A stretch of DNA of 64,000 nt from an uncultured delta proteobacterium (GTDB taxonomy: Bacteria > Desulfobacterota > Binatia > UBA9968). Location: contig CAVSHR010000006.1 of NCBI GenBank assembly GCA_963727625.1, forward strand, positions 224,001-288,000, in the 5' to 3' direction. This document shows positions 2-36,213 of the stretch, one piece after another. A program made the position numbers and the translations under genes. Position 1 is the first letter of the stretch; each line of letters begins with the position of its first letter. The notes beneath the pieces are model-generated. The model was given only the letters and a program-made list of their open reading frames with translations, was not told the DNA's origin and did no database searches.

Positions 2-2038
2 AAAGGCCGGATCCAAGTCCAGGCGTCGCGCCTGCGCACCGTGCTGCCCGACGCCAGAAAGGATCTTTCCGGCTCGGAACCGTTCAAACAAGCGCGCGAG
101 GGAAAGTCCTATTTCGGCCGGGTCTACTTCGTGCGCGGCTCCGAGCCCTATATGACGATCGCGGTCCCGATCGAGCGCTTCGCCGGCGACGTCATCGGCG
201 TGCTGCAAGCGGAAGTCAACCTTAAATACATCGGCGATGTCGTTTCGAGTATCACCATCGGCAAAGCGGGTTATGCCTACGCTGTGAGCCGATCCGGCGA
301 ACTGATCGCCCACCCCGACATCAGTTTGGTCTTGCAACGCCGCAACGTGCGCCAATTGGCTGCCGTCAAAGCCGCCTTCGAGAGCCAGCCCGGAGTGGCG
401 CCACTAGACGCACTCGTCACAAAAAATATTCAGGGAAAGGAAGTGCTGAGTTCGTTTGCGATCATTCCCGATTTCGGCTGGGCGGTGATCGTCGACCGGC
501 CCTTGGCCGAGGCCTACGAAGCGCTCTATGCCTCGATGCTGCGCACCGCCGCTCTGTTCCTGATCGGTCTCAGCATGGCGCTATTCGCCAGTTATTTTCT
601 CGCCCGCCGCGTCGTGCAACCGGTGCGGATACTGCGCGAAGGCGTGGAGCGCATCGGTACCGGCGATCTCGGCTATCGGTTGAATCTCAAGACCGGCGAC
701 GAAATAGAAGTGCTCGCCGATGAATTCAACAAAATGACTTCCCAGCTCGAGGAATCTTACGCCAACTTGGAGCAGAAGGTCGAAGACCGCACGAGGGAGC
801 TGACGGAGTCGCTGGAGCAGCAGACGGCGACCAGCGAAGTCCTGCGCGTCATCGCGGGATCGCCGAAAGATGTCCAACCGGTGCTTGACGTCGTGGCGGA
901 GCGGGCAGCAAAGCTCTGCGACGCCGAGGACGCGATCATCTTTCGCGCCTTTGGCGATTACCATCAGAGAGTCGCCAAGTTTGGCTCGATTCCAGCCCCG
1001 GATTTTCCGGTGTCGATCACGCGCGGTTTTCCCGGCGGCCGAGCCATTCTCGACCGGAAGACCGTTCACATCCATGATATCGAGGAGGTGCTCGAGACCG
1101 AATATACGGACGTCCGGTCGATTCAAAAAGAGATCGGGCAGCGCACCGTGCTCGCCACGCCACTCTTGCGCGAGGGCGTCGCGATCGGCGCCATCGTCAT
1201 TCGCCGCCTGCAAGTACGGCCGTTTACCGACAAGCAGATTGCGCTGCTCAAAACCTTCGCCGATCAGGCCGTGATCGCCATCGAAAACGTCCGTCTGTTC
1301 CAGGAGATTCAGGAGAAGAACGAACAGCTCGAGGCTGCCAGCCGACACAAATCTCAATTTCTCGCCAACGTCAGCCACGAGCTGCGCACGCCGCTCAATT
1401 CGATCATCGGCTTTACAAGAATAGTTTTGCGCCGCACGGAGGGCAAGATCGAAAGCCTGCAAAAAGAAAATCTGAAAAAAGTTTTGATCAGCGCAGATCA
1501 TTTGCTGAGCCTGATCAACGAGCTGCTCGACCTGGCAAAGATCGAGGCGGGGCGGATGGAAGCCTACGCGGAAACGTTTAAAGTCGACGAGATCATCCGC
1601 ATGGCCATGTCCACGGTCGAACCGATGCTTAGGAACGGCCGGGTAAATCTGGTCACGGACATCGCTCCGGACATTCCGCCGCTGAAAACCGATCGAGACA
1701 AGCTCAAACAGTCCGTCCTCAATCTTCTCAGCAACGCCGTCAAGTTCACCGAGAGCGGCGAGATCAAGGTCACAGCGTGGCGAGACAATGGTTCTTTGAA
1801 GCTCACCGTATCCGATACCGGCATAGGCATGAACCCGGAAGCGCTCCGATACATCTTCGACGAGTTCCGCCAGGCTGACATGTCGAGCACGCGCAAATAC
1901 GGCGGCACGGGCCTTGGCTTGGCCATTGTGAAAAAGTTCATCAATCTTATGGGCGGCGATATCGTCGTCGCAAGCGAAGAAGGCAAAGGATCGACGTTCA
2001 CGATCACGATGCCGCTGGAACTGAAAATTCAAGGGTAA
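2..2038 (+). CDS. Sensor histidine kinase (Cache-type periplasmic domain, TM, HAMP, GAF, HisKA, HATPase); 5' end lies outside the window
   Basis: Frame open from the window start. HAMP (LKTGDEIEVLADEFNKM), GAF (RPFTDKQIALLKTFADQAVIAIEN), H-box (FLANVSHELRTPL), N-box (NLLSNAVKFT), G boxes (DTGIG, GGTGLGL). Confidence 0.93.
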   Translation, partial: KGRIQVQASRLRTVLPDARKDLSGSEPFKQAREGKSYFGRVYFVRGSEPYMTIAVPIERFAGDVIGVLQAEVNLKYIGDVVSSITIGKAGYAYAVSRSGELIAHPDISLVLQRRNVRQLAAVKAAFESQPGVAPLDALVTKNIQGKEVLSSFAIIPDFGWAVIVDRPLAEAYEALYASMLRTAALFLIGLSMALFASYFLARRVVQPVRILREGVERIGTGDLGYRLNLKTGDEIEVLADEFNKMTSQLEESYANLEQKVEDRTRELTESLEQQTATSEVLRVIAGSPKDVQPVLDVVAERAAKLCDAEDAIIFRAFGDYHQRVAKFGSIPAPDFPVSITRGFPGGRAILDRKTVHIHDIEEVLETEYTDVRSIQKEIGQRTVLATPLLREGVAIGAIVIRRLQVRPFTDKQIALLKTFADQAVIAIENVRLFQEIQEKNEQLEAASRHKSQFLANVSHELRTPLNSIIGFTRIVLRRTEGKIESLQKENLKKVLISADHLLSLINELLDLAKIEAGRMEAYAETFKVDEIIRMAMSTVEPMLRNGRVNLVTDIAPDIPPLKTDRDKLKQSVLNLLSNAVKFTESGEIKVTAWRDNGSLKLTVSDTGIGMNPEALRYIFDEFRQADMSSTRKYGGTGLGLAIVKKFINLMGGDIVVASEEGKGSTFTITMPLELKIQG

Positions 2039-2196
2039 GACGGCAAGAGTAAGAGACCGGGCGTAAGGCAAGTAATGCAGGATCTCTCGAGGAATTTAAT
2101 CCTGAGCCGATTCGACTTTGCGTCGGGTAAACTTCGCCGAAGGCCTCAAAAATGTTTTTGGCTTTGCCAGTGGAAGCACCCCGAAGGGAAAAAATA

Positions 2197-3171
2197 ATGC
2201 GACAGTGGTTCATCTTCTTCGTACTGCTCGCCGTTAGCGTTTCACGAACTTGCGATGTGATTGCAGCCGAGCGCGCCCTGCCGGTCAGGATCGGCGTGCT
2301 TACGGAGGGATTTGGGCCGACCACCGGTGCAGTAGGCCTGCGGGATGGGCTTAAGGGACTTGGTTACCGGGAGGATAAAGATTTCGTGATCGGCGTCCGA
2401 TTTACTCAGGGCGATGCCTTGGCGCTTCCCGAGGCGGTTAGGAAACTTATCCGGCAAGGAGTGGATATTCTGATCACAGAGGGACGGAGCGCAGCAAAGG
2501 CAGCTCAACTGGAAACCAAAGTATTGCCGATCGTCTTTGCCGGAGGTGGCGATCCGGTCGGGTTCGGTCTGATTCGGAGCTTTGCCCGTCCTGGAACTAA
2601 TATTACGGGTGTAAGCGATCTCGATATTGAGTTGGGCCCCAAGCGCCTTGAGATTTTTAAGGAGATGATCCCCGAGCTAAATCGTGTGTTATTCCCCTAC
2701 GATGCGACCGATGCCTACAGCGTTTCCGAGGCGAAGGCGTATCGCGATGCCGCGCGTCGGCTCAGAATCGCGCTGATTGAGAAAGAGCTGCGCACTGAGG
2801 ATGAGGCAAAATCGGTCCTGGGCAAGTTAAGAAAAGGCGACATCCACGGCATCCTGTCACCACGTCCGATGACAGCGAATATTCCTGGATACGTCCGCGA
2901 GGCGGGTTCCCGGTCTTCCATACCGACGATGTTTGCCGCGACTTTTTTTGCGGAGAATGGTGGCCTCGCAAGTTACACTCCCAATTCCTACGAATCCGGC
3001 CGAATGGCGGCGCGGCTGGTGGACAAGATTCTAAAAGGCGAGAGTCCCGGTAAAATCCCCGTGGAGGTGAACAACAAGATCGAACTGGTTATCAACCTGA
3101 AGGTTGCGAAGGCATTGGGGATCAAGATCGCCCCGCAGGCGTTGTATAAGGCAAACCGAGTCATCCGATGA
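2197..3171 (+). CDS. ABC-type substrate-binding protein (ABC_sub_bind-like), no cognate permease nearby
   Basis: Signal-peptide-like N-terminus; motifs DPVGFGLIRSFARPGTNITG and ELVINLKVAKALGI typical of this SBP family. Confidence 0.85.
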   Translation: MRQWFIFFVLLAVSVSRTCDVIAAERALPVRIGVLTEGFGPTTGAVGLRDGLKGLGYREDKDFVIGVRFTQGDALALPEAVRKLIRQGVDILITEGRSAAKAAQLETKVLPIVFAGGGDPVGFGLIRSFARPGTNITGVSDLDIELGPKRLEIFKEMIPELNRVLFPYDATDAYSVSEAKAYRDAARRLRIALIEKELRTEDEAKSVLGKLRKGDIHGILSPRPMTANIPGYVREAGSRSSIPTMFAATFFAENGGLASYTPNSYESGRMAARLVDKILKGESPGKIPVEVNNKIELVINLKVAKALGIKIAPQALYKANRVIR

Positions 3172-3237
3172 CTCACTGACATAGCGCAGAATGAAAATTG
3201 CAAAATGCAGACTGCCAAGCAGAGAGGAGACCAAGAG

Positions 3238-3795
3238 ATGAGTAATTCAATGGCGTATCGGAAGGTTTTGTTTTTCTTGATCCTGCTCCTGGCCGGCGGG
3301 CTAGGTATGGCCGGTGCCGCTTGGGCCATTGAGGTGGGCGACCGGGCGCCCGACTTCAAGCTGCCGGCGACCACCGGGGTGGATATTTCGCTGAGCGAGT
3401 TCCGAGGCAAGAAATGGGTGCTGGTCGAGTTCTATGGCGCGGATTTCCAGCCCACCTGAGCGGCGAACCTGACGGCCAGGAAGGCCGACTACAACCGGTT
3501 CCAGGCCCTGGGTGTCCAGAACCTTGGCATCAGCGCCAATGCGACCTTCTCGCAGCAGACCTTCGCCGACTCGCTAAAGCTGCCGTTTCCACTGCTCAGC
3601 GACTTTCAGGAGCGCAAGGTCATCCGCAGTTACGGTGTGCTTAACGACAAGCTTATGATCGCGAATAGGTCGTTTTTTCTTATCGACCCGCAAGGAATCA
3701 TCCGCAAGAAATGGATCATCAATAATCCAGCGGTGACGGTTGTCTATAGCCCCACTTTGCTCAAGGATATCGAGGAGATCGTCGGCAAGAAATAA
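3238..3795 (+). CDS. Exported AhpC/TSA (peroxiredoxin-like) protein, probable selenoprotein (in-frame TGA 3457-3459 = Sec)
   Basis: RBS AGGAGA before ATG 3238. VGDRAPDFKL...FYGADFQPT-TGA, then the same frame continues AANLTARKADYNRFQALGVQNLGIS...LPFPLLSD...RSFFLIDPQGIIR to TAA 3793-3795. TGA sits at the peroxidatic Cys position. Confidence 0.88.
3465..3501 (+). promoter_or_regulatory. Candidate bacterial SECIS element
   Basis: Just 3' of the UGA: lower stem GAACC/GGTTC, upper stem CGGCC/GGCCG, apical loop AGGAA starting 19 nt after UGA. Confidence 0.65.
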
Positions 3796-3887
3796 ATTGG
3801 CTCGCGGGCTATCGACGCGGGCTCGTCAGCACGTGCTGGCGCGTCCCTGGGATAGTGGGGCCCGATTCGACGATACGAAACGATAAA

Positions 3888-4451
3888 ATGAGCAATCGAA
3901 CGCGGCAGGAAATCGCAGGATTTCTAATTGTGATCGTGGCGATCCTCGGCACTCCGCCGGAGAATCACGCCGCGGCGCCGGATATGTTGGGGAAACTCCA
4001 TCTCTCCACCTACCCTCGCGTCACAAAACCGCCAAAGTTCAATGGCACCACTATCGATGGCCGGAAGGTATCTCTGGTTTCTCTGGTCGGCAAGGTTGTT
4101 GTCGTCAATTTCTGGGCGACCTGGTGCCAAGAATGCCGACTTGAGATGCCCATGTTCGAGCAGATGCACCGCGAGTTCGCGGTGCATGGACTCAGTGTTA
4201 TCGGGATCAATGCTCGCGAAGGGCCAGTGGCCATCCGTGCATACGCCAAAGAGCTCCGCTTAACTTTTCCCCTGTTGCTCGATCCAAAGGGAGAGATCAA
4301 TGCGGCTTACGGAGTCGTCGGTCTACCGGCTACTTTTCTCATTGGTCGCGACAGACGCGCGGTTGCGCGGGCCGTCGGACCGAGAGAGTGGACGAGCAAC
4401 CCCGCCATCGTCATTATCAGAACGCTCCTGAACGAGCCAATGGACCGATAA
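3888..4451 (+). CDS. TlpA/ResA-family thiol-disulfide oxidoreductase, exported
   Basis: VVNFWATWCQECRLEMP; YGVVGLPATFLI; hydrophobic N-terminus. Confidence 0.88.
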   Translation: MSNRTRQEIAGFLIVIVAILGTPPENHAAAPDMLGKLHLSTYPRVTKPPKFNGTTIDGRKVSLVSLVGKVVVVNFWATWCQECRLEMPMFEQMHREFAVHGLSVIGINAREGPVAIRAYAKELRLTFPLLLDPKGEINAAYGVVGLPATFLIGRDRRAVARAVGPREWTSNPAIVIIRTLLNEPMDR

Positions 4452-4478
4452 GAGCCACCCACTCTGGAGGTAACCAAC

Positions 4479-4844
4479 ATGGAAATGAAAAAAATTCTCG
4501 TGGTCGATGACACGGATTGGAACCGCGACCTGCTGGTTCAGCTTCTGGAGGAAGACTACGAGATACTTCAGGCCGTTGACGGTGCCGAAGGCGTGAGAAT
4601 AACGGAGCAGAGCAAGCCCGATCTGATCCTCATGGATCTCGGCATGCCGGTCATGGATGGATGGGAAGCGAGCCGGAGAATCAAAGCCGACCCCGGGCTC
4701 AAGCATATTCCGATTATCGCGGTTACGTCCCACGCCATGGTCGGCGACGAGATCGAGGCCCGCAAGGCCGGCTGCGACGATTACCTGCCCAAGCCGATCG
4801 ATGAAGATTTGCTGCTGCAAAAGATCAAAAAATTTCTCGAATAA
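4479..4844 (+). CDS. Single-domain response regulator (DivK/CheY-like)
   Basis: ILVVDD, PDLILMD, AVTSHAM, YLPKP; RBS GGAGG. Confidence 0.92.
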   Translation: MEMKKILVVDDTDWNRDLLVQLLEEDYEILQAVDGAEGVRITEQSKPDLILMDLGMPVMDGWEASRRIKADPGLKHIPIIAVTSHAMVGDEIEARKAGCDDYLPKPIDEDLLLQKIKKFLE

Positions 4845-4887
4845 ATCAACGATGGCTTATTCGAGTTCAATCGCGCAAAGGTGAGAT

Positions 4888-5970
4888 ATGTTAAACAAGA
4901 TCCTCATCGTCGACGATGAGCCGTTTAATCTCGACCTCCTCGAGCAAGAGCTGGGCGACTACGACTACGTGATTGAAAGAGCGACTGATGGCACCGAGGC
5001 GCTGGAGAAAACCGCTAGTTTCGAGCCCGATGTCATATTGCTCGATTACATGATGCCGCGCATGAACGGGCTCGAAGTCGTCAAACGGCTGCGCGAAAAC
5101 CCGCAGCATAAGGGCATCCCGGTTATTCTGCTCACGGCCAAGGCAACGCAGGAAGACAAAGTGCGCGGCCTCGACGCCGGCGCCGATGACTACGTGACCA
5201 AACCTTTCGACTCGATCGAGCTATTGGCGCGGGTGCGCGCCATGTTGCGGCTCAAGGAAATGCACGACCAACTTGAAGAATGGAACCGAACCCTCGCCGA
5301 AAAGGTGCAGGAACAGGTGCACGAGATCGAACGCATGGCCCGCCTCAAGCGCTATCTCTCGCCGCAAATCGCCGAGACCATCCTTGGCTCGGACGACTCG
5401 CTGTTCAAGACCCACCGGCGTGAAATTACCATCGTGTTTCTCGATCTCAGGGGATTTACCGCCTTCTCCGACAGCGCCGAGCCCGAAGAGGTCATGGAAT
5501 TTTTGCGCCATTACCACGCCGAGATGGGCCAGTTAGTCTTCAAGTTCGAGGGCACATTGGAACGTTTCGTGGGCGACGGGATTGTGATAATTTTCAATGA
5601 TCCGATTCCCTGCGAAAATTACGCCGAGAAGGCGGCGCGAATGGCGCTGGAGATGCGCGACCGGGTGAAGGAGCTGCGTGCCGCCTGGCGCAAAAAGGGA
5701 TATGACCTGGATTTGGGCGTCGGCCTGGCGTGCGGTTACGCAACCCTGGGGACCATGGGCTTCGAAGGACGCATGGACTACGGCACGGTGGGTAATCTGC
5801 CGAATCTGGCGGCGCGCCTATGCGCCGAGGCCAAAGGCGGACAGATCCTTACCGACCAGAAAACCATGAGTCGATTGGAAGACGGGTTTGCAGCGGAATC
5901 GATCCAGGAGCTAAATCTCAAAGGCATCAACCGCCCGGTTACGGCTTTCAATATCACGGGCGCCAAATAG
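4888..5970 (+). CDS. Response-regulator-fused class III nucleotide (adenylate/guanylate) cyclase
   Basis: N-terminal REC (ILIVDDE, ILLDYMMP, YVTKPF); cyclase motifs IVFLDLRGFT, RFVGDG, NLAARL. Confidence 0.92.
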   Translation: MLNKILIVDDEPFNLDLLEQELGDYDYVIERATDGTEALEKTASFEPDVILLDYMMPRMNGLEVVKRLRENPQHKGIPVILLTAKATQEDKVRGLDAGADDYVTKPFDSIELLARVRAMLRLKEMHDQLEEWNRTLAEKVQEQVHEIERMARLKRYLSPQIAETILGSDDSLFKTHRREITIVFLDLRGFTAFSDSAEPEEVMEFLRHYHAEMGQLVFKFEGTLERFVGDGIVIIFNDPIPCENYAEKAARMALEMRDRVKELRAAWRKKGYDLDLGVGLACGYATLGTMGFEGRMDYGTVGNLPNLAARLCAEAKGGQILTDQKTMSRLEDGFAAESIQELNLKGINRPVTAFNITGAK

Positions 5971-5979
5971 CAGGCAGCG

Positions 5980-6912
5980 ATGCGCGGAAAACTTCAACGC
6001 GAAGCGAAAAACAAGCGGCCCTTTCGGGTAAAATTCTGGGGCGTGCGGGGAAGCTATCCGACGGTCGATCCCGATACACTCGCGGTCGGCGGAAACACTT
6101 CCTGCGTCGAAGTCGAAGTCGACGGCCGCCGCTTGATCTTCGATGCCGGCACCGGGATCATCCCGCTCGGCAAAGAGCTGTGCGACGGCGCGGTCGCGCC
6201 GCCGACGGCTTATATTTTTTTGAGCCACACCCATATCGATCATGTCATGGGACTGTGTTTTTTCGAGCCGCTGCTGACCCCGAAGGCGCATTCTTTCATA
6301 CTCGGTCCCGGCAATACCCGCGGCGCTCTGACGCGCAGTTTGCGGCACTTGACTCACAGCCATCTGTTTCCGGTTTCGCTCGACGAGCTTAAAGGAAAGA
6401 AAGAAATCTTTTCCCTCGCCGGCGGCGAATCGATTCGCTTCGGCACGACCGCGCGTCGACCGAAAATCGAGTCGGCGAAATCAGCGACTGTCGCCAACGG
6501 CGACGAGCTCGTCATCACCACCTGCAAAAGTCCGGCGCATCCACTCAACGGCGTCATGCTGTATCGGGTTCACTACCGCAACAAGAGTTTCGTCTACGCC
6601 ACCGATATTGAACAGAAGGAGGGCGGCTATCGAGAGATCATCGAGTTCGTCCGCGGCACAGACCTGCTGGTTCACGATGCCCAATATCTTTCTGAAGAAT
6701 ATTCGGGACGCGCTAAACCGCGCAAAGGCTGGGGCCACAGCACCATCGAAATGGCTGCCGAGGTTGCCCGAAAGGCCAAGGTCAAACGGCTCTTGCTGTT
6801 CCACCACGAGCCAACCCACGACGACAAGACCATGAAGAAGATCGAAAAGCAGACAAAACTGCTCTTTCGCTCGACCGAGGTCGCCCATGAAGGTATGGAA
6901 ATCACTCTTTAG
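5980..6912 (+). CDS. MBL-fold metallohydrolase (possible cyclic-nucleotide phosphodiesterase)
   Basis: FWGVRGS, GGNTSCVEV, DAGTG, SHTHIDH (HxHxDH), GWGHS, LFHHEP. Confidence 0.85.
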   Translation: MRGKLQREAKNKRPFRVKFWGVRGSYPTVDPDTLAVGGNTSCVEVEVDGRRLIFDAGTGIIPLGKELCDGAVAPPTAYIFLSHTHIDHVMGLCFFEPLLTPKAHSFILGPGNTRGALTRSLRHLTHSHLFPVSLDELKGKKEIFSLAGGESIRFGTTARRPKIESAKSATVANGDELVITTCKSPAHPLNGVMLYRVHYRNKSFVYATDIEQKEGGYREIIEFVRGTDLLVHDAQYLSEEYSGRAKPRKGWGHSTIEMAAEVARKAKVKRLLLFHHEPTHDDKTMKKIEKQTKLLFRSTEVAHEGMEITL

Positions 6913-7948
6913 TCGAACTACAACCGCACCCGATCCGCACAATCAATCGTCCGCTACGGGCCCCAGCCGCCGCCTAGACGGGCGTCTGCTCGCCACATCG
7001 TTCATGGCACTGTTTCTTCTGCAGCCGCTGTGCACCTTCGCCCAGGCGCCGGCCCGCGTGGGGATTTTAGTTCGGGAACTGGGCCGTGCTCAGTTCCAGG
7101 CGATCAAGGGCCTGACGGAGGAACTCAAACGGCTGGGCTATATAAACCGGGAAAATCTCGTTTTGGAAACTCGTAACGTCAAGGGCAGCCGGGCCGCGTT
7201 GCAACCCGCGGCCGCCGAGTTAATCGGCCAAAAGGTCGATCTGATTTTCACCACGGGGACCAGCGCCACCCGCGCGGCCGTGACCGCGACCCGGGAGATT
7301 CCAGTTGTGTTTGTTCACCCAGGCGACCCGGTTGCTTCCGGCTTGTTCAAAAGCGCCGAACTGCGGTCGGCAAACTTGACGGGCGTCGCGGCTTACGCCG
7401 GTGAAACCACCGAAAAGAGATTGGCGCTTTTCAATGAAATCTTTCCTGGGCTCCGAAAGGTCGTGGTCTTCTTTGATGGTAACAATGCCTCTTCGCGCGA
7501 TAAGTACAAGATGGTCGAAAACTTAGCAAAAAAATCTCATCTCGAAGCGGCCGCCTTTGCGGTTAAATCCGCCGACGAGTTGCGTACCACCATCGCTAAC
7601 TTGCACCCTGGAAACGGAATGGGCGTGTTTCAAGTGGCCGATGAGTTGGTTGAGAGCGAAGCGGAGTTTCTTTTTCAAAACGCTCGGGTGAAGAAAATCG
7701 CTACGATGTTCAACGAAGAATCGTGGGCGATTAACGGAGCGCTTGCCGCTTATGGGCCCAATTACTTTGAAATGGGTCGTCAAGCGGGCGGCCTCGCCGC
7801 GAAGATTATCAAAGGGAAGCGCCCGTCCTCCTTGCCGATCGAGCACGCAACCCAATTCGATCTGACGCTCAATTATCGCACCAGTCGATTTATCGGCGTG
7901 CCGCTTCCCAGGAAGCTGATTAAAAAAGCAAACAAAGTCATTCGCTAG
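6887..7948 (+). CDS. ABC-type substrate-binding protein (ABC_sub_bind-like); true start may be ATG 7004
   Basis: GDPVASGL...NLTGV, YGPNYFEMGRQAG, ends ANKVIR like the paralogue at 2197. Confidence 0.82.
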   Translation: MKVWKSLFSRTTTAPDPHNQSSATGPSRRLDGRLLATSFMALFLLQPLCTFAQAPARVGILVRELGRAQFQAIKGLTEELKRLGYINRENLVLETRNVKGSRAALQPAAAELIGQKVDLIFTTGTSATRAAVTATREIPVVFVHPGDPVASGLFKSAELRSANLTGVAAYAGETTEKRLALFNEIFPGLRKVVVFFDGNNASSRDKYKMVENLAKKSHLEAAAFAVKSADELRTTIANLHPGNGMGVFQVADELVESEAEFLFQNARVKKIATMFNEESWAINGALAAYGPNYFEMGRQAGGLAAKIIKGKRPSSLPIEHATQFDLTLNYRTSRFIGVPLPRKLIKKANKVIR

Positions 7949-7951
7949 GCT

Positions 7952-10612
7952 ATGGAAACCCTCGCCGATATCATTCGCAGCATTCCGATATTTTCCGGCG
8001 TTTCGCGCGAAGATATCGCCAAAATCCTGGGCAAAATGGAAGAGGAATCGTTCGGCGCCGGAGAGACGATTTTTTCCCAAGGCGACCAGGGTGACGCATT
8101 TTATTTGATTCAATCCGGTGCGGTGCAAGTCATTCTAGAAAGCGGCGCCGGTAAATCGGATGTCGTCGCTATTCTTGGGCCGCGCGATTGGTTCGGGGAA
8201 ATGGCTTTGCTTTCGGGCGAGCCTCGCTCGGCAACAATTGACACGGTCAAGAAAACCGTTCTTTGGCGGCTCCGACGCGAGGATTGGGACGAATTGATCG
8301 AAAAGCACCCGACTTGGTTGCTGCAATTTTGCGCCACCCTGAGCAAAAGGCTTTCTTACGTTGATCGCCAATACTCGACCGGACGCGAGGCGTTCAACTC
8401 CTTGGCCGAGGAGTTTTACGCGGCGCGCTCGCCCGACGATCAAGCATTTTTTCGCCAAGCGTCCTTGCTGCGCGCCATCGACAGGAAAACTTTGGCCGAG
8501 CTGCTTTCCGTCGCGGCGCCTGCCAATCTCTTAACCGAGCTCGCCGCGAGCCAATTCCCGCTGATCCGTCGTTTGGAACAAGACCGTTACGAGCTGCATA
8601 GTTTTTTTCGCGAATTCCTCCACGAGAAATTGTTCGCCACCGACGGCGCCGAAGCAAAAGAACGGCTCCATCGTCAATTTGCCGACCGGTACGAAGCCAT
8701 TGGCGATTGGCAGGAGGCGGCTCATCATGCCCTGCAAGTTCAGGATTGGTCCAAAGCGAGCAAGCTGCTGACGGCGGCAGATGAGCAATCCCTGGCCGGC
8801 GCGGCGCTATTCGTTAAAAACACTTTGGACGATTTCCCTCAAGAGCAATTCTTGGCCGATCCCCGCCTGGTCAACCTCAAGAGCAACGCTTTGATTCAAC
8901 TGGGCGATAGGGTCGGCGCCTATCGGGCCTATCGCGAAATCCTGGCCCGCAAGACATCCGGCGCGGCGGACAACGACGGCATCGCCGGCTACCGCCGCAT
9001 GGCCGAAACCCTGGCGCAGCGCAAAGAATACGGGCAGGCGATCCATCACCTGCGCAGCGCGCTCAACCTGATCAGCCAGGAAGCGACGGCGTCGGACAGT
9101 TACCAAGAAACTCTCCCGGAAATGACGTGGCCCGGGATGGCCCTCCCGCCGCTATCGGATAGCGGCGGGAGGACGCTGCGAATCGGCCTGCGTTCATGGA
9201 GTCCTTGGCTCCGCTCTTCGTCATTGAGTAAATGGTTCGGCGCGCTTCTGGGACTAGCAGTCGGTGGTTTTCTGTGGTTCGGTCAACCGGATATCGGCTT
9301 GGATCCGTCCGCCACGAAGCTCCTGGGCTTGATTTCTGCAACGCTGACCTTTTGGGTCTTCAGGTCCCTGCCGGACTACGGCGTCGCCTTGGCGTTTGCC
9401 ATGATCATCATTCTCACGCGCTTGGAATCGCCGCAAACGGTGATGGGCGGTTTCGCCAGCACGACCTGGTTTATGACGCTGGGTGTCCTCGGACTTGGCG
9501 CGGCGATTACCGGCTGCGGCCTATTCTATCGCCTCTCGCTGCATCTCGTGCGTCTGTTTCCGTTGAGCTATTACTGGCAAATCGTTGCCACCGGCATCAT
9601 GGGCGTCGTTGTCATGGCGCTGATTCCGCAGCAAACCGCGCGCACGGTGATCACCAGCCAGATGCTGGTCAATCTTTCCGAAAGCCTAGGCTACAAGACA
9701 CCGTCCAGAGCATCCACCGGCCTATTCGTGGCAAGTTTTCTCGGTCTCGGCCAACTAGGATTTTTGTTTTTGACCGGCTCGACGACGAGCTTGATCGCCT
9801 GGGGTCTTTTGCCCGCCGACGTGCGCGCGCAATTTACTTGGGGCTTTTGGTTCCTCGCCGCTTTGCCCCCTACCCTCGTGGTAATCGTTATCATTCTGCT
9901 TTGCACGATCTTGCTCTACCGCCCGGAGTCGCGACCGAAGATTTCCTACACGATGGTGCAAACCCAGCTCAGTATTCTCGGACCCCTGTCTCATAAAGAA
10001 TGGATCAGCTTCGCCGTGCTGATTTTCACGGTGACAGGCTGGCTCACGGCGCCCTATCACGGCGTCGACGGCGCGTGGATTGCGATCATCGCCTTTGCCA
10101 TTCTAGTCAACACCGGTACTCTCGATTGGAACATGATGCGCAAGGGCATCGACTGGGAATTGTTGATTTACATGGGCGTGACTTTAAGCATACCGACGCT
10201 CTTAAGGCAGGCGAAGATCGACCAGTGGCTGGTCGAGGTGATTTCGCCTTTGATTCTGCCGTTCATCAACAGCCCGGCCTGGTTTTTCGTGGTGATCGCG
10301 CTTTTGACTTACGCGCTCAAGCTGATCTTTACGAGTTTTCTCACCGTGGTCACTCTATGCGTCGCATTGTTGCCGTTATCCATCGACGTCGGTATGAGCC
10401 CGTGGATCATCACCATGATTATCTTGATCGCTTCCGAGGTGTGGTTTTTCCCCTATCAGATCGACTGGCATATGCTCGCCTACTCCACCACCGACGGCAA
10501 AGGTTTCTCTTATCCACTTATGTGCCGTATCAATATTTTTTACGCCATCGCGTACTTGACCGCGTTGATCGTCGCGATTCCCTACTGGCGCTACTTGGGT
10601 TTGATCAATTAG
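7952..10612 (+). CDS. Fusion: cNMP-binding domain + winged-helix/TPR-like region + SLC13/DASS-family anion transporter
   Basis: N-terminal cNMP domain (IFSQGDQGDAFYLIQSG, FGEMALLSGEPRSAT); helical middle region (YELHSFFREFL, TPR-like AIHHLRSAL); C-terminal ~450 aa multi-TM with DASS-like segments (GFASTTW, FLTGSTTS, LGPLSHKE, IPYWRYLGL). Confidence 0.82.
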   Translation: METLADIIRSIPIFSGVSREDIAKILGKMEEESFGAGETIFSQGDQGDAFYLIQSGAVQVILESGAGKSDVVAILGPRDWFGEMALLSGEPRSATIDTVKKTVLWRLRREDWDELIEKHPTWLLQFCATLSKRLSYVDRQYSTGREAFNSLAEEFYAARSPDDQAFFRQASLLRAIDRKTLAELLSVAAPANLLTELAASQFPLIRRLEQDRYELHSFFREFLHEKLFATDGAEAKERLHRQFADRYEAIGDWQEAAHHALQVQDWSKASKLLTAADEQSLAGAALFVKNTLDDFPQEQFLADPRLVNLKSNALIQLGDRVGAYRAYREILARKTSGAADNDGIAGYRRMAETLAQRKEYGQAIHHLRSALNLISQEATASDSYQETLPEMTWPGMALPPLSDSGGRTLRIGLRSWSPWLRSSSLSKWFGALLGLAVGGFLWFGQPDIGLDPSATKLLGLISATLTFWVFRSLPDYGVALAFAMIIILTRLESPQTVMGGFASTTWFMTLGVLGLGAAITGCGLFYRLSLHLVRLFPLSYYWQIVATGIMGVVVMALIPQQTARTVITSQMLVNLSESLGYKTPSRASTGLFVASFLGLGQLGFLFLTGSTTSLIAWGLLPADVRAQFTWGFWFLAALPPTLVVIVIILLCTILLYRPESRPKISYTMVQTQLSILGPLSHKEWISFAVLIFTVTGWLTAPYHGVDGAWIAIIAFAILVNTGTLDWNMMRKGIDWELLIYMGVTLSIPTLLRQAKIDQWLVEVISPLILPFINSPAWFFVVIALLTYALKLIFTSFLTVVTLCVALLPLSIDVGMSPWIITMIILIASEVWFFPYQIDWHMLAYSTTDGKGFSYPLMCRINIFYAIAYLTALIVAIPYWRYLGLIN

Positions 10613-10619
10613 CTCGGCC

Positions 10620-11963
10620 ATGAGCCAAACTATTCTCATCGTCGACGACGAACCGCTCAATCTCGATCTCTTGGAACAGGAGCTGTCCGATCTCGGTTAT
10701 CCAGTCGATAAGGCAGACGGCGGCCGCGCGGCTTTGGCGCAACTGGCCGCGAAACCCGCCGATCTCGTTCTACTCGACTACCAGATGCCCGGCTTGAACG
10801 GCATCGAGGTATTAGGCGAGATTAAGAAAAGAGAGCCTGGCCTGCCGGTCATCATCATCACGGCCTACGGCACCATCGAACGCGCCGTCGAAGCGATTAA
10901 AGCCGGCGCGGACGATTTCATCACCAAGCCCTTTGACCCAGAGCATCTTGCGGTCGTCGTCAACAAAGCCCTGGAAAAAGCCCGGCTTCGCTCCGAAGTG
11001 GAATTGCTCACGCGCGAGCTCGCCGGCCGTTATTATCTGGTTGCGGGAAATAGCATCGCGATGGCGGCGGCGCTGGCCGACGCGAAGAAAGCGGCGCGCA
11101 GCACGACTACTGTGTTACTGCTTGGCGAGAGCGGCACCGGCAAAGAGATTTTCGCCCGCTCGATTCACGAATGGAGCGATCGAGCGGCCCGGCCTTTCGT
11201 CGCGATCAACTGCGCCGGACTTTCCAAGGAGTTACTCGAAAGCGAGCTGTTCGGCCACGAACGCGGCGCCTTCACCGGCGCGCACCAGGCGAAGAAAGGC
11301 AAGATGGAAACGGCCGACGGCGGCACGGTCTTTCTCGATGAGGTTGGCGATATCGCGCCCGAGCTGCAAACCAAGCTGCTGCGCTTTCTCCAAGAGCGCG
11401 AATTCGAGCGGGTTGGCGGCATCCAGCCCATCCGCGTCGATATCAAAATCATCGCCGCGACCAACAAGAATCTCGAGGAAACGGTGCAACGCGGTTCGTT
11501 CCGCGAAGACTTGTACCACCGGCTGAACGTCATCGCGATCGCACTGCCGCCGTTGCGCGATCGAAAAGATGACATCCCCGCCTTGGCGGACTATTTTTTG
11601 CGCCGCTTTGCATCGGAGACGAAAAAACCCTTCACCGGCTTGAGTGAAGACGCCTTGGCTCGGTTGTGCGCCTACGCTTGGCCCGGCAATGTGCGGGAAT
11701 TGGCCAACGTCATTGAGCGCGGCGTTGTCTTGGGCGACGGCCCTCGATTTGCCGCTGATCATTTGCCGGCGCGGATGATCGGCACCGCAGCCGCATCGCC
11801 ACCGGAGGCAAGACAATTTCACGACGCTGTGAATAGCCACCGCCGCGCGTTGATCGTCGACGCCCTCGCGCGCGCCCAGGGCAACCGCGCGGCGGCGGCA
11901 AAAACCCTCGGCCTGCACCGTACCCACCTGCTCAAGCTGATGAAGGCGCTCGGGATCACCTGA
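10620..11963 (+). CDS. Sigma54-dependent response regulator (NtrC/AtoC family)
   Basis: REC domain, GESGTGKE, ESELFGHERGAFTGA, FLDEVG, WPGNVREL, C-terminal Fis-type HTH. Confidence 0.95.
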   Translation: MSQTILIVDDEPLNLDLLEQELSDLGYPVDKADGGRAALAQLAAKPADLVLLDYQMPGLNGIEVLGEIKKREPGLPVIIITAYGTIERAVEAIKAGADDFITKPFDPEHLAVVVNKALEKARLRSEVELLTRELAGRYYLVAGNSIAMAAALADAKKAARSTTTVLLLGESGTGKEIFARSIHEWSDRAARPFVAINCAGLSKELLESELFGHERGAFTGAHQAKKGKMETADGGTVFLDEVGDIAPELQTKLLRFLQEREFERVGGIQPIRVDIKIIAATNKNLEETVQRGSFREDLYHRLNVIAIALPPLRDRKDDIPALADYFLRRFASETKKPFTGLSEDALARLCAYAWPGNVRELANVIERGVVLGDGPRFAADHLPARMIGTAAASPPEARQFHDAVNSHRRALIVDALARAQGNRAAAAKTLGLHRTHLLKLMKALGIT

Positions 11964-34711: not shown

Positions 34712-34950
34712 TGGGGAATTCCTTCCGTCATGTTGCCGCGCTACATACCGCCGTAATATATCCACCGGTAGGAAGATGGTCAATTGCCGCACGCAATGGG
34801 ACAATTACGGTCCTCGCTCCAGCAGATTGGCAAACGGCCAACGACAGAACTCCGCTTCACCATTGGCTGATTTATCGCGAAAATTGCTAATTTTGATTGT
34901 TTCTGCCAAGAAAGTTCTTTACTATGCGGCTCACGGCGCCGATGAGAAAC

Positions 34951-34966
34951 TGGCACAGCGGTTGCT
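34951..34966 (+). promoter_or_regulatory. Sigma54 (-24/-12) promoter
   Basis: TGGCAC-AGCGG-TTGCT, an exact consensus match, 30 nt upstream of ATG 34996 with RBS GGAGG. Confidence 0.75.
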
Positions 34967-34995
34967 CTTACGTCCGCTGTGATTCGGAGGTGGTA

Positions 34996-36213
34996 ATGCG
35001 GAGCGCAAGACGATGGTTCATTTCACTTTGCTTGAGCTTCTTGGTGTGTTTACCCGCCAAGGCCACGGCTGAGAGTAATTCCTCGAACTCCAAGCCGTTT
35101 CCGGTCCCTGCCGGCCTCGAATCTTCGGTTGAGTTTTGGAAGAAAATTTTTACCGAATACAACCGTTCTCAAATGATTTTTTTCGATCCCCTCGATTTGA
35201 GCAAGATCTACGAGGTGATCGAAGTCGGCGAAGACAACCGCTCCAACGATTTTATCAACGCCGAGCGGAAGCGCGTTGCGGGAGAAAACGGTGTCGATAT
35301 TGAACGGGTCAAAACTCAGCGTGGCATAAAAGAACGCACCGCCGAAGGCATTACCCGATCGGGACGTTATCTCCAGCAAATAAAGAATATTTTTACCGAG
35401 CGCGGATTGCCGGCCGAGCTTGTTTATCTACCGATCGTAGAATCGTCGTATGACATAAATGCCCGATCCTCCGTCGGCGCCTTGGGCATCTGGCAGTTCA
35501 TGCCCCGAACCGGGCGGCAGTATCTCCGCATTAGCCGGGGTGTCGACGAAAGAAAAGATCCGCTGGAATCTTCCCGCGCGGCCGCCGCCTATCTCCAAGA
35601 AGCATACGAAACGCTCGGCAATTGGCCTCTGGCGATTACCTCTTATAATTTCGGACCAGCCGGCATGGCGCGCGCCGTGGCTGTGGTGGAGTCCGAAGAC
35701 CTCGTTGAATTAATTCAAAGCTATGAGCATCGCTACTGGGGATTTGCGCCGAAGAATTTTTACGCGGAATTTCTAGCGGCAGTCGAGATCGGCAGCAACG
35801 TGAGCCGGTATTTCCCCGGCCTCGAGGCCGATGCTCCGGTTGAGATCAAGGAAGTCGAAGTGAAACGCCGCACCAGAGTGGCGACGCTCGTCAAATCTTC
35901 GGGACTAAAGCATGAAGAGTTTCTCGGGTGGAACCCGGCGCTTAGCCGGGGTATCCGGGTCATCCCCGCAGGCTATCGCGTTAAACTTCCCGCCGATAAG
36001 GCCGCCGAGCCGCTCGTCGTCGCGGCGCAAAATCGAAACTCCGAGTCGAATGCCCAACCGCAAGTCGTGCATCACCGCGTAAAACGCGGCGAGACGCTTT
36101 ATGAGATTGCGCGCCGCTATGGCGCGTCAGTGGAGAGGATCATCCAGGCAAACAACATCCGCCACGCGCGTCTCTTGAGAGTCGGCACGACGCTGCGAAT
36201 CCCGCGAATATAA
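34996..36213 (+). CDS. Lytic transglycosylase (MltD-like) with C-terminal LysM
   Basis: LPIVESSY, GALGIWQFMP, LAITSYNFG; HRVKRGETLYEIARRYG LysM. Confidence 0.9.
   Translation: MRSARRWFISLCLSFLVCLPAKATAESNSSNSKPFPVPAGLESSVEFWKKIFTEYNRSQMIFFDPLDLSKIYEVIEVGEDNRSNDFINAERKRVAGENGVDIERVKTQRGIKERTAEGITRSGRYLQQIKNIFTERGLPAELVYLPIVESSYDINARSSVGALGIWQFMPRTGRQYLRISRGVDERKDPLESSRAAAAYLQEAYETLGNWPLAITSYNFGPAGMARAVAVVESEDLVELIQSYEHRYWGFAPKNFYAEFLAAVEIGSNVSRYFPGLEADAPVEIKEVEVKRRTRVATLVKSSGLKHEEFLGWNPALSRGIRVIPAGYRVKLPADKAAEPLVVAAQNRNSESNAQPQVVHHRVKRGETLYEIARRYGASVERIIQANNIRHARLLRVGTTLRIPRI

Follow-up and report, generated by a model that had tools for sequence, protein, structure and literature searches.

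Does a compact run of genes that encodes a regulated nucleotidyl cyclase, a possible phosphodiesterase, and a transporter with a cyclic nucleotide-binding domain form a dedicated signaling circuit, or do these genes share no more than a neighborhood? This question is raised by a 64-kb stretch of DNA (hereafter the window) on contig C6 of the 6.6-Mb genome G000, which belongs to the Binatia, an abundant, uncultured soil lineage. Six genes on its plus strand are separated by 43, 9, −26 (an overlap of the open reading frames [ORFs] as listed), 3, and 7 nt. In order, they encode a single-domain response regulator (REC), a REC-linked class III cyclase, a hydrolase of the metallo-beta-lactamase (MBL) fold, a secreted solute-binding protein (SBP) of family PF04392, a carrier that joins a cyclic nucleoside monophosphate (cNMP)-binding domain to a DASS-type membrane domain (cNMP-DASS), and a sigma54-dependent regulator. 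The initial annotation of the locus had described these six packed, co-oriented genes and their domains, and the ORF list and Pfam searches bore this out (Table 1). We find it somewhat probable, on balance, that the locus encodes a two-component-controlled cyclic-nucleotide switch on a binding-protein-associated anion carrier. Domain content, catalytic and ligand-binding residues, folds, and gene neighborhoods can be observed directly, and from these we infer every functional step of the switch.

The neighborhoods of related carrier genes provide the first line of evidence. We mapped the window proteins by tblastn onto 22 loci of carrier relatives, 15 of which form a close clade (65–82% identity) and 7 a distant one (56–60%). 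The homology lists of the carrier and the MBL protein contained close orthologs only (at least 72% identity), and architectural diversity was taken from searches of representatives and genomes. Across both clades, 19 of the 20 loci that could be evaluated have a PF04392 SBP gene immediately 5′ of the carrier gene, and its stop codon lies at most 17 nt from the carrier start in 13 of 17; the SBP and the carrier are the invariant core of the module. In the distant clade the context genes differ, yet the pair of SBP and cNMP-DASS genes persists, and a class III cyclase is encoded within about 1.2 kb of it in 4 of 5 evaluable loci. These cyclases are of several kinds: CHASE2-cyclases, encoded convergently in L012 and on the same strand in L015, a Zn-ribbon-cyclase-AAA16-TPR protein in L021, and a REC-cyclase encoded immediately 5′ in L020. 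As cyclase genes are rare, with just 8 PF00211 matches in the entire window genome, it is very unlikely that their repeated adjacency to the pair arose by chance (well under 1% per locus). The distant clade is more telling than the close clade in this respect, because the surrounding genes differ there.

Within the close clade, all 9 evaluable loci share one order of the REC-cyclase, MBL, SBP, and cNMP-DASS genes. Every one of the 11 loci that could be evaluated for it has the MBL gene, and a single REC gene precedes the REC-cyclase gene in 7 of 9. A kinase gene lies immediately 5′ of the REC gene in 4 of the 5 loci that could be evaluated (L006, L008, L009, and L019), and this order of kinase, REC, and REC-cyclase genes in relatives supports the phosphorelay control that had been proposed for the locus. 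The kinase described upstream of the run is indeed encoded in the window, but it is not directly adjacent, as the genes for a second PF04392 protein (SBP1) and a TlpA-like redoxin intervene. The gene for the sigma54 regulator adjoins the carrier gene only in the window and in L009, whereas 8.4 kb separate the two in L001; it is a lineage-specific neighbor outside the conserved module. In the other loci of the close clade, the carrier gene is followed by genes for TlpA-like, DsbD, FolE, and PepA proteins, the same followers as in the window. The co-conservation that was expected of all these genes is thus seen for the cyclase, the SBP, and the carrier. It is seen neither for the sigma54 activator nor for the MBL gene, which was found in 0 of 6 evaluable loci of the distant clade.

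The second line of evidence comes from the carrier itself. Its cNMP domain, with a fold that matches CRP and GlxR, contains a canonical phosphate-binding cassette, FGEMALLSGEPRSAT. Each of the 37 sequences aligned from the two cyclase-linked clades, that of the window included, retains the Glu and Arg of this cassette. The window genome encodes a paralog of the carrier at G000:C9:407502-409985 (L023:9476-11989; 837 residues, membrane part 32% identical), with neither a cyclase nor an SBP gene in its neighborhood, and the cassette of this cyclase-less paralog is degenerate (FGDMALIDDAAVAPT) and without the Arg. This correlation between cassette and cyclase is the best internal evidence that the domain may bind a nucleotide made nearby. 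The coupling of writer and reader put forward by the initial annotation, in which the cyclase acts on the cNMP-domain transporter, is well supported by the conserved and re-invented neighborhood and by the intact cassette in the cyclase-linked clades.

What the nucleotide would control can be read in part from the membrane domain, which is the most conserved part of the protein. The Na_sulph_symp profile (PF00939) covers it from profile position 3 to 471 of 472, and the protein stays under the cut-off of TIGR00785 (122.1 versus 198.6 bits); carriers of this kind are named “SLC13 family permease” at NCBI and “anion transporter” at IMG. The nearest solved sequences are those of the plant plastid transporters DiT1 and DiT2.1 (9mcr/9mcu, E ~1e-13). 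The nearest folds are likewise 9mcu, 9mcr, and 6wtw (DiT and LaINDY; template-modeling [TM] score 0.73–0.75 on the target), ahead of Na+-coupled SLC13 proteins and VcINDY; NaS1, NaDC, and VcINDY were also among the fold matches. In excerpts of Sauer et al. (2020, PMC7553777), the Na1 site of DASS exchangers is described as occupied by an Arg and the Na2 site by a His; the Arg, which fills the Na1 site of LaINDY, is a mark of the exchanger type. In the window carrier, R564 is invariant in the first hairpin (PQQTARTV) and aligns with the hairpin Arg of DiT1 and DiT2.1. H840 is near-invariant and stands 2 residues off the aligned His of DiT2.1, so that its placing at the Na2 site is tentative. 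Given that DiT and LaINDY are nearest in sequence and fold, that R564 is aligned, and that H840 lies near the DiT2.1 His, the carrier looks like a Na+-independent anion exchanger (DASS-E type). Strict conservation of a periplasmic loop, WFGQPDIGLD, is limited to the SBP-linked clade; as plain clade conservation could explain this, we do not count it as evidence for docking of the SBP.

Between the cNMP and membrane domains lie about 290 extra residues, which match the NCBIfam MalT model (149–311) and, weakly, Pfam TPR_2, and which are helical in an AlphaFold2 (AF2) model computed from a 38-sequence alignment (pLDDT 77.2, pTM 0.58). In this model, the cNMP domain is followed by a long helix (residues 120–157), a winged-helix-like unit (161–215), a helical, TPR-like solenoid (217–380), and a tether that leads to the membrane domain. 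The arm resembles the winged-helix and TPR part of MalT-type switch proteins, parts that mediate protein-protein contacts. It therefore invites the alternative that the protein is a transceptor, with the DASS domain and the SBP forming a ligand sensor without flux, the arm recruiting a kinase or regulator, and the cyclic nucleotide tuning the output. In favor of this, the paralog L023 sits in a signaling cluster, where it is preceded by genes for a TonB-dependent receptor, a YfiR-like protein, a CHASE8 hybrid kinase, two REC proteins, and a ParA-like ATPase. The module is also embedded among 11 binding-protein genes on one strand (SBP1, SBP2, and 9 PF04392 matches at G000:C6:211275-223606, just upstream of the window), and a search of the contig for a PF02653 ABC permease gave none. 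Nevertheless, we consider a transceptor improbable: the conservation peaks in the membrane domain, which retains the full DASS fold and the exchanger hairpin Arg, as would be expected of a working carrier, while the protein has no fused output domain and comparison of the clades showed no cytoplasmic partner gene that is kept throughout.

The cyclase would be the writer of the switch. Its catalytic domain is joined to a PleD-like REC domain by a coiled coil, and its closest solved relative is CyaB of Pseudomonas aeruginosa (3r5g, E 1.3e-35; 2w01, 6fht, and 1wc0 were also aligned). In the motifs FLDLRGFT, VGDG, and NLAARL, both metal-binding Asp residues and the transition-state Asn and Arg align with those of 3r5g, 2w01, and 1wc0 and are kept in 11 of 11 orthologs; the metal-binding, transition-state, and base-specifying roles are those we take these positions to have. 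The base-specifying pair is Arg/Gly. In place of the Arg, CyaB and CyaC have Lys, and 2w01, which we take to be a guanylate cyclase, has Glu; at the second position, CyaB and CyaC have Thr, and 2w01 shares the Gly. The pair thus differs from that of adenylate cyclases (Lys with Asp or Thr), and of the pair of guanylate cyclases (Glu with Cys, Gly, or Ser) it fits the second residue, with Arg instead of Glu at the first. All 11 REC-cyclase orthologs share the Arg, followed by Gly in 9 and Ser in 2. The cyclases of the distant clade likewise depart from the canonical pairs (Asp/Gly twice, Lys/Ala once), and a Lys/Thr pair was found in 1 of 6 other cyclases examined in the window genome. A literature search for an Arg at the specificity position of class III cyclases turned up nothing among the papers listed. 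With a specificity pair as non-canonical as Arg/Gly, the product of the cyclase cannot be named from sequence; the enzyme could add to the base-specificity solutions of class III cyclases. Separately, a HAMP-cyclase with a Glu/Gly pair and a 2w01-like motif region is encoded 5 kb from the cNMP-DASS gene of L021 (L021:17728-19926, minus strand), and is a candidate guanylate cyclase.

The MBL protein is the candidate eraser of the circuit. According to the parts of Thomson et al. (2022, PMC9293780) at our disposal, atypical class-II phosphodiesterases, which are kin to RNase Z and include Rv1339, CpdA of Corynebacterium glutamicum, and YfhI of Bacillus subtilis, are defined by PF12706 together with the signature [T/S]HXHXDH. 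The window protein has both, with SHTHIDH at residues 82–88. In 81 relatives, H83, H85, D87, H88, H187, D209, D233, H253, and H275 are invariant, as is the N-terminal WGxRGS motif of this MBL family. Its AF2 model (pLDDT 94.4) matched 1zkp, 1y44 (RNase Z), and YhfI (6kns/6knt) at Foldseek ranks 1–10, with TM scores of 0.74–0.81 on the target; since RNase Z scores equally, the fold does not single out the phosphodiesterase family. Identity to the solved YhfI and 1zkp chains is 17–22%. Among the long members of the family, 8 of 12 are fused to signaling domains (REC; GAF-HisKA-HATPase, twice; HisKA-HATPase; STAS, twice; and weak PilZ, twice). Weighed with the evidence against it (below), a role of the MBL protein as phosphodiesterase seems plausible, with a roughly even chance or a little better.

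A locus in another family of the phylum (L045; G083:C4:99800-110700, positions 2208-7763) encodes an MMPL/RND-type protein with a C-terminal cNMP domain, followed after 6 nt by an MBL gene of the same family. Genes for a TPR protein and a short class III cyclase lie convergently at 0.3–1.3 kb, the cyclase at 1.3 kb. This is an independent echo of the arrangement in the window, in which a second kind of cNMP-domain transporter has its own cyclase and MBL protein. A general link of the MBL family to cyclases was considered as well and rejected, as L045 was the 1 locus with a cyclase and a cNMP protein among 20 MBL loci of other families.

SBP2, encoded by the constant partner gene of the carrier, carries a signal peptide, as do its orthologs. 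Its predicted cleavage site (FAQA|PARVG) falls at residue 54 of the listed ORF, and translation therefore probably starts downstream of position 6887. The closest solved proteins are 3lkv, 6hni, and 3lft. Most of the roughly 18 full-length PF04392 genes in the window genome lie in two tandem arrays, and extra PF04392 genes flank the module in L001, L006, L010, L019, and L020. As far as the text of Jaques et al. (2025, PMC12344293) available to us goes, only the TRAP and TTT families are known to pair binding proteins with secondary carriers, and the membrane parts of TRAP transporters share the DASS fold. The same portion treats binding-protein use as an emerging theme, holds further classes possible among elevator-type carriers, and has TAXI-GltS as a proposed case. 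A DASS carrier served by an SBP would, as a hypothesis, fit this expectation. As a side observation, three loci of the distant clade (L012, L015, and L016) contain a divergent trio of genes 5′ of the SBP gene on the opposite strand, encoding a 5′-nucleotidase (Metallophos and 5_nucleotid_C), an ABC permease (BPD_transp_1), and a molybdopterin hydroxylase of the xanthine dehydrogenase type, which may hint at nucleotide or purine metabolism.

Several observations pull away from a dedicated switch. The order of genes in the close clade could be inherited synteny, because the downstream TlpA-like, DsbD, FolE, and PepA genes are likewise conserved. L022, the sole exception to the SBP-carrier pair, has no SBP gene in the 454 nt of upstream sequence available, which are non-coding; L016 in the distant clade has no cyclase gene within about 6 kb; and the MBL gene is missing from that clade. 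The carrier model is of moderate confidence. The MBL protein scored 87.4 bits against the RNase Z model TIGR02651 (cut-off 292.95) and 33 bits against the Apyc1 model NF041851 (cut-off 400), the latter over its C-terminal part only, with the Apyc1 structure 7u2r at Foldseek rank 40. Of the 20 MBL loci of other families, 17 are in non-signaling contexts and 2 stand beside c-di-GMP enzymes (L039 and L043). PF04392 proteins normally serve ABC importers, and a set of PF02653 permease genes lies near the other PF04392 array, on contig C2. A search for SBP-DASS fusions, with SBP2 as query and restricted to longer proteins, gave 2 hits, none with a DASS domain, which is weak evidence; one of the hits was a PF04392 domain joined to an ABC permease. 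With no fusion protein found, and an exchanger-type carrier being an odd client for a binding protein, service of the SBP to the carrier stays hypothetical.

Taken to their end, these observations would describe a loose neighborhood, in which the carrier answers a general cNMP pool, the MBL protein has a different task (such as cleaving RNA or phosphodiesters, or processing the imported compound), the SBP serves an ABC importer elsewhere, and the gene order is inherited. The housekeeping genes that follow in the same order would agree with this, as would the spread of the MBL family through 120 of 301 sampled genomes of the phylum, its mostly non-signaling loci, and the names of its orthologs in IMG (PhnP-like or RNase BN). 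The solved PF04392 proteins, which bind aromatic amino acids according to the consulted portion of a survey (PMC10443332), and the permease set on C2 point in the same direction for the SBP. It does not account well for the adjacency of the SBP and cNMP-DASS genes where all other context has changed, nor for the recruitment of different cyclase types beside this pair although cyclase genes are rare. We therefore regard it as unlikely, and retain the cyclic-nucleotide switch as the favored reading.

The distribution of the carrier bears on a further alternative. In 401 sampled genomes of the class, that of the window included, matches at E ≤ 1e-50 were found in 77. Full-length orthologs are confined to the family of the window genome (48 of 63 sampled genomes, two unpublished ones, G632 and G642, among the 48) and its sister family (2 of 4). 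The combination of a class III-like cyclase with a cNMP-binding membrane protein is reminiscent of Pycsar, an anti-phage system in which a cyclase detects infection and a membrane protein then brings about death or arrest of the cell. PADLOC models for PycC and Pycsar effectors matched the cyclase and the cNMP domain (best E 1.4e-16 and 2.6e-14), and Apyc1-type MBL enzymes degrade Pycsar signals. These matches concern generic cyclase and cNMP domains only, and the MBL protein had no PADLOC match. Moreover, the cyclase is controlled by a REC domain and preceded by a sensor kinase. In place of a small toxic effector, the locus has a highly conserved DASS carrier of full size, together with a binding protein, and the distribution is vertical rather than patchy. 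The orthologs occupy one syntenic place beside housekeeping genes, a near-universal presence in the family that is unlike a defence island. We rejected this reading as highly improbable, in agreement with the earlier view that the locus serves signaling instead of phage defence.

Four other families encode a second cNMP-DASS clade, with proteins of about 800 residues and 34–39% identity in the membrane part; this clade is commonest in Methylomirabilota (Atlas). In eight of its loci we scanned the 49 of 85 ORFs that lie nearest the gene. One locus (L032) has a CHASE2-cyclase gene immediately upstream on the same strand; against a general association, the other 7 of 8 had no cyclase, and none of the eight an SBP, among the scanned ORFs. 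Separately, two citrate synthase genes lie beside the cNMP-DASS gene in L028 and an aconitase gene in L030, a weak hint at tricarboxylate substrates.

If the locus encodes a cyclic-nucleotide switch, its steps may be pictured as follows. The dCache kinase would sense an external ligand and phosphorylate the REC domain of the cyclase, with the free REC protein acting as a sink or relay. The activated cyclase dimer would then produce a cyclic nucleotide, with a base that is not predictable. Binding of this nucleotide to the cNMP domain would be relayed by the MalT/TPR-like arm, on its flexible tether, to the elevator domain of the DASS part, so that anion exchange by this Na+-independent exchanger-type domain would be opened or blocked. 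The secreted PF04392 protein, encoded 3 nt upstream, would be the periplasmic partner that delivers or reports the substrate. In the clade that has it, the MBL enzyme would hydrolyze the nucleotide and reset the switch. The initial annotation called the circuit self-contained; we read this as an interpretation rather than a finding, because the MBL protein is a candidate eraser whose gene is not constant, and the sigma54 activator lies outside the module. Three features go beyond that annotation: the invariant core of SBP and carrier, the exchanger-like character of the carrier, and the non-canonical specificity residues of the cyclase. A bolder version of the switch, on which we would place little weight, holds that the DASS domain is a docking site, on its periplasmic side, for the PF04392 protein. 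The pair would then be an undescribed class of binding-protein-dependent secondary transporter, the first on a DASS exchanger, and gated from the inside by a cyclic nucleotide. The Arg/Gly cyclase might make a private messenger other than cAMP, and the SBP array might supply interchangeable substrate adaptors.

Parts of the module resemble known systems. The carrier is most like the DASS-E proteins LaINDY and DiT1/DiT2.1, its best match in sequence and fold and in the hairpin Arg, and differs from them by a 420-residue cytoplasmic N-terminal arm and by its constant SBP partner gene. The MBL protein shares PF12706, SHTHIDH, the full set of metal ligands, and a YhfI/RNase Z-like fold with the atypical class-II phosphodiesterases, and is set apart by its low identity, its WGxRGS motif, and the position of its gene right after that of a cyclase; its 20 sampled relatives mostly stand alone. 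The tight coupling of a secreted SBP gene to that of an elevator-type carrier recalls TRAP, TTT, and TAXI-GltS, as these are presented in the available part of PMC12344293. The SBP of the window belongs to PF04392 and not to DctP, TAXI, or TctC, and the carrier looks like a DASS-E protein to which a cytoplasmic cNMP sensor has been added, which places the pair outside these families. In Xanthomonas, a class III cyclase gene is likewise found beside that of the reader of its product (XC_0250/XC_0249; excerpts of PMC3770947), whereas the output in the window is a DASS carrier with an SBP.

The components and logic of such a circuit (cyclase, phosphodiesterase, and cNMP receptor) are known; what is new is that they stand together with an exchanger-like DASS carrier and a binding protein. 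A literature search that left bioRxiv supplements and papers without a Creative Commons license outside its scope found no described cNMP-DASS system. Second-messenger control of bacterial transporters at the post-translational level is known for c-di-AMP and a few other cases. With kinase, cyclase, probable phosphodiesterase, receptor, and output encoded together, the module is a compact test case for cNMP-controlled transport. A 2023 review (PMC10710835) lists fusions of cNMP domains to MFS transporters as uncharacterized and, in the part at hand, does not mention DASS fusions. If the SBP serves the DASS domain, the locus would add to the few secondary transporters that depend on binding proteins, namely TRAP, TTT, and the proposed TAXI-GltS (from the portion of PMC12344293 cited above), and would test the idea that elevator carriers are predisposed to binding proteins.

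Table 1. Features of the module and its upstream neighbors, in positions of the window. Cut-offs are given where they accompany a score.
Feature	Position	Strand	Evidence
Sensor histidine kinase, dCache (periplasmic)-HAMP-GAF-HisKA-HATPase	2..2038	+	Pfam; 5′ end cut by window start
SBP1, PF04392 paralog; last-but-one gene of a tandem PF04392 array reaching the window start	2152..3171	+	Pfam
TlpA-like redoxin, between kinase and REC genes	3855-4451		
Single-domain response regulator (REC)	4479..4844	+	Response_reg 99.4 bits (Pfam)
REC-coiled coil-class III nucleotidyl cyclase	4888..5970	+	Response_reg 114.8 bits, Guanylate_cyc (PF00211) 75.4 bits, cut-off 21.9 (Pfam)
MBL-fold hydrolase, candidate atypical class-II phosphodiesterase	5980..6912	+	Lactamase_B_2 (PF12706) 68.9 bits, cut-off 27
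SBP2, secreted PF04392 binding protein, constant gene partner of the carrier	6887..7948	+	ABC_sub_bind 172.5 bits
Carrier (ORF 7952-10612), cNMP-binding domain, residues 1–118	7952..8305	+	cNMP_binding (PF00027) 85.3 bits, cut-off 27.5 (Pfam)
Carrier, helical arm, residues 120–380; disordered tether 380–422 after it	8309..9091	+	NCBIfam MalT, weak TPR_2, AF2
Carrier, DASS-fold membrane domain, residues 424–886	9221..10612	+	Na_sulph_symp/CitMHS 121.1 bits (Pfam)
NtrC-type sigma54-dependent response regulator	10620..11963	+	Response_reg + Sigma54_activat + AAA_lid_14 + HTH_8

Upstream of the module, the stretch 3238-3795 of the window has no listed ORF of at least 80 residues, save a short one at 3205-3459. 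The sigma54 regulator that closes the run is of the NtrC type (REC, sigma54 AAA+, and HTH_8 domains; 235.7, 116.1, and 28.2 bits) and falls under the cut-offs of all NCBIfam equivalog models. Scans of the window for sigma70 promoters and terminators did no better than on shuffled sequences. A scan for −24/−12 promoters gave 18 matches in the window, where 28.9 were expected, and none of these lies ahead of any gene of the operon; four inside it (4043, 4943, 5495, and 7005) have 2 mismatches and fall within coding sequence. The sole exact match, TGGCAC-N5-TTGCT, is located on the plus strand at 34951-34966, at the 5′ end of an ORF listed from a TTG start (34897-36213).

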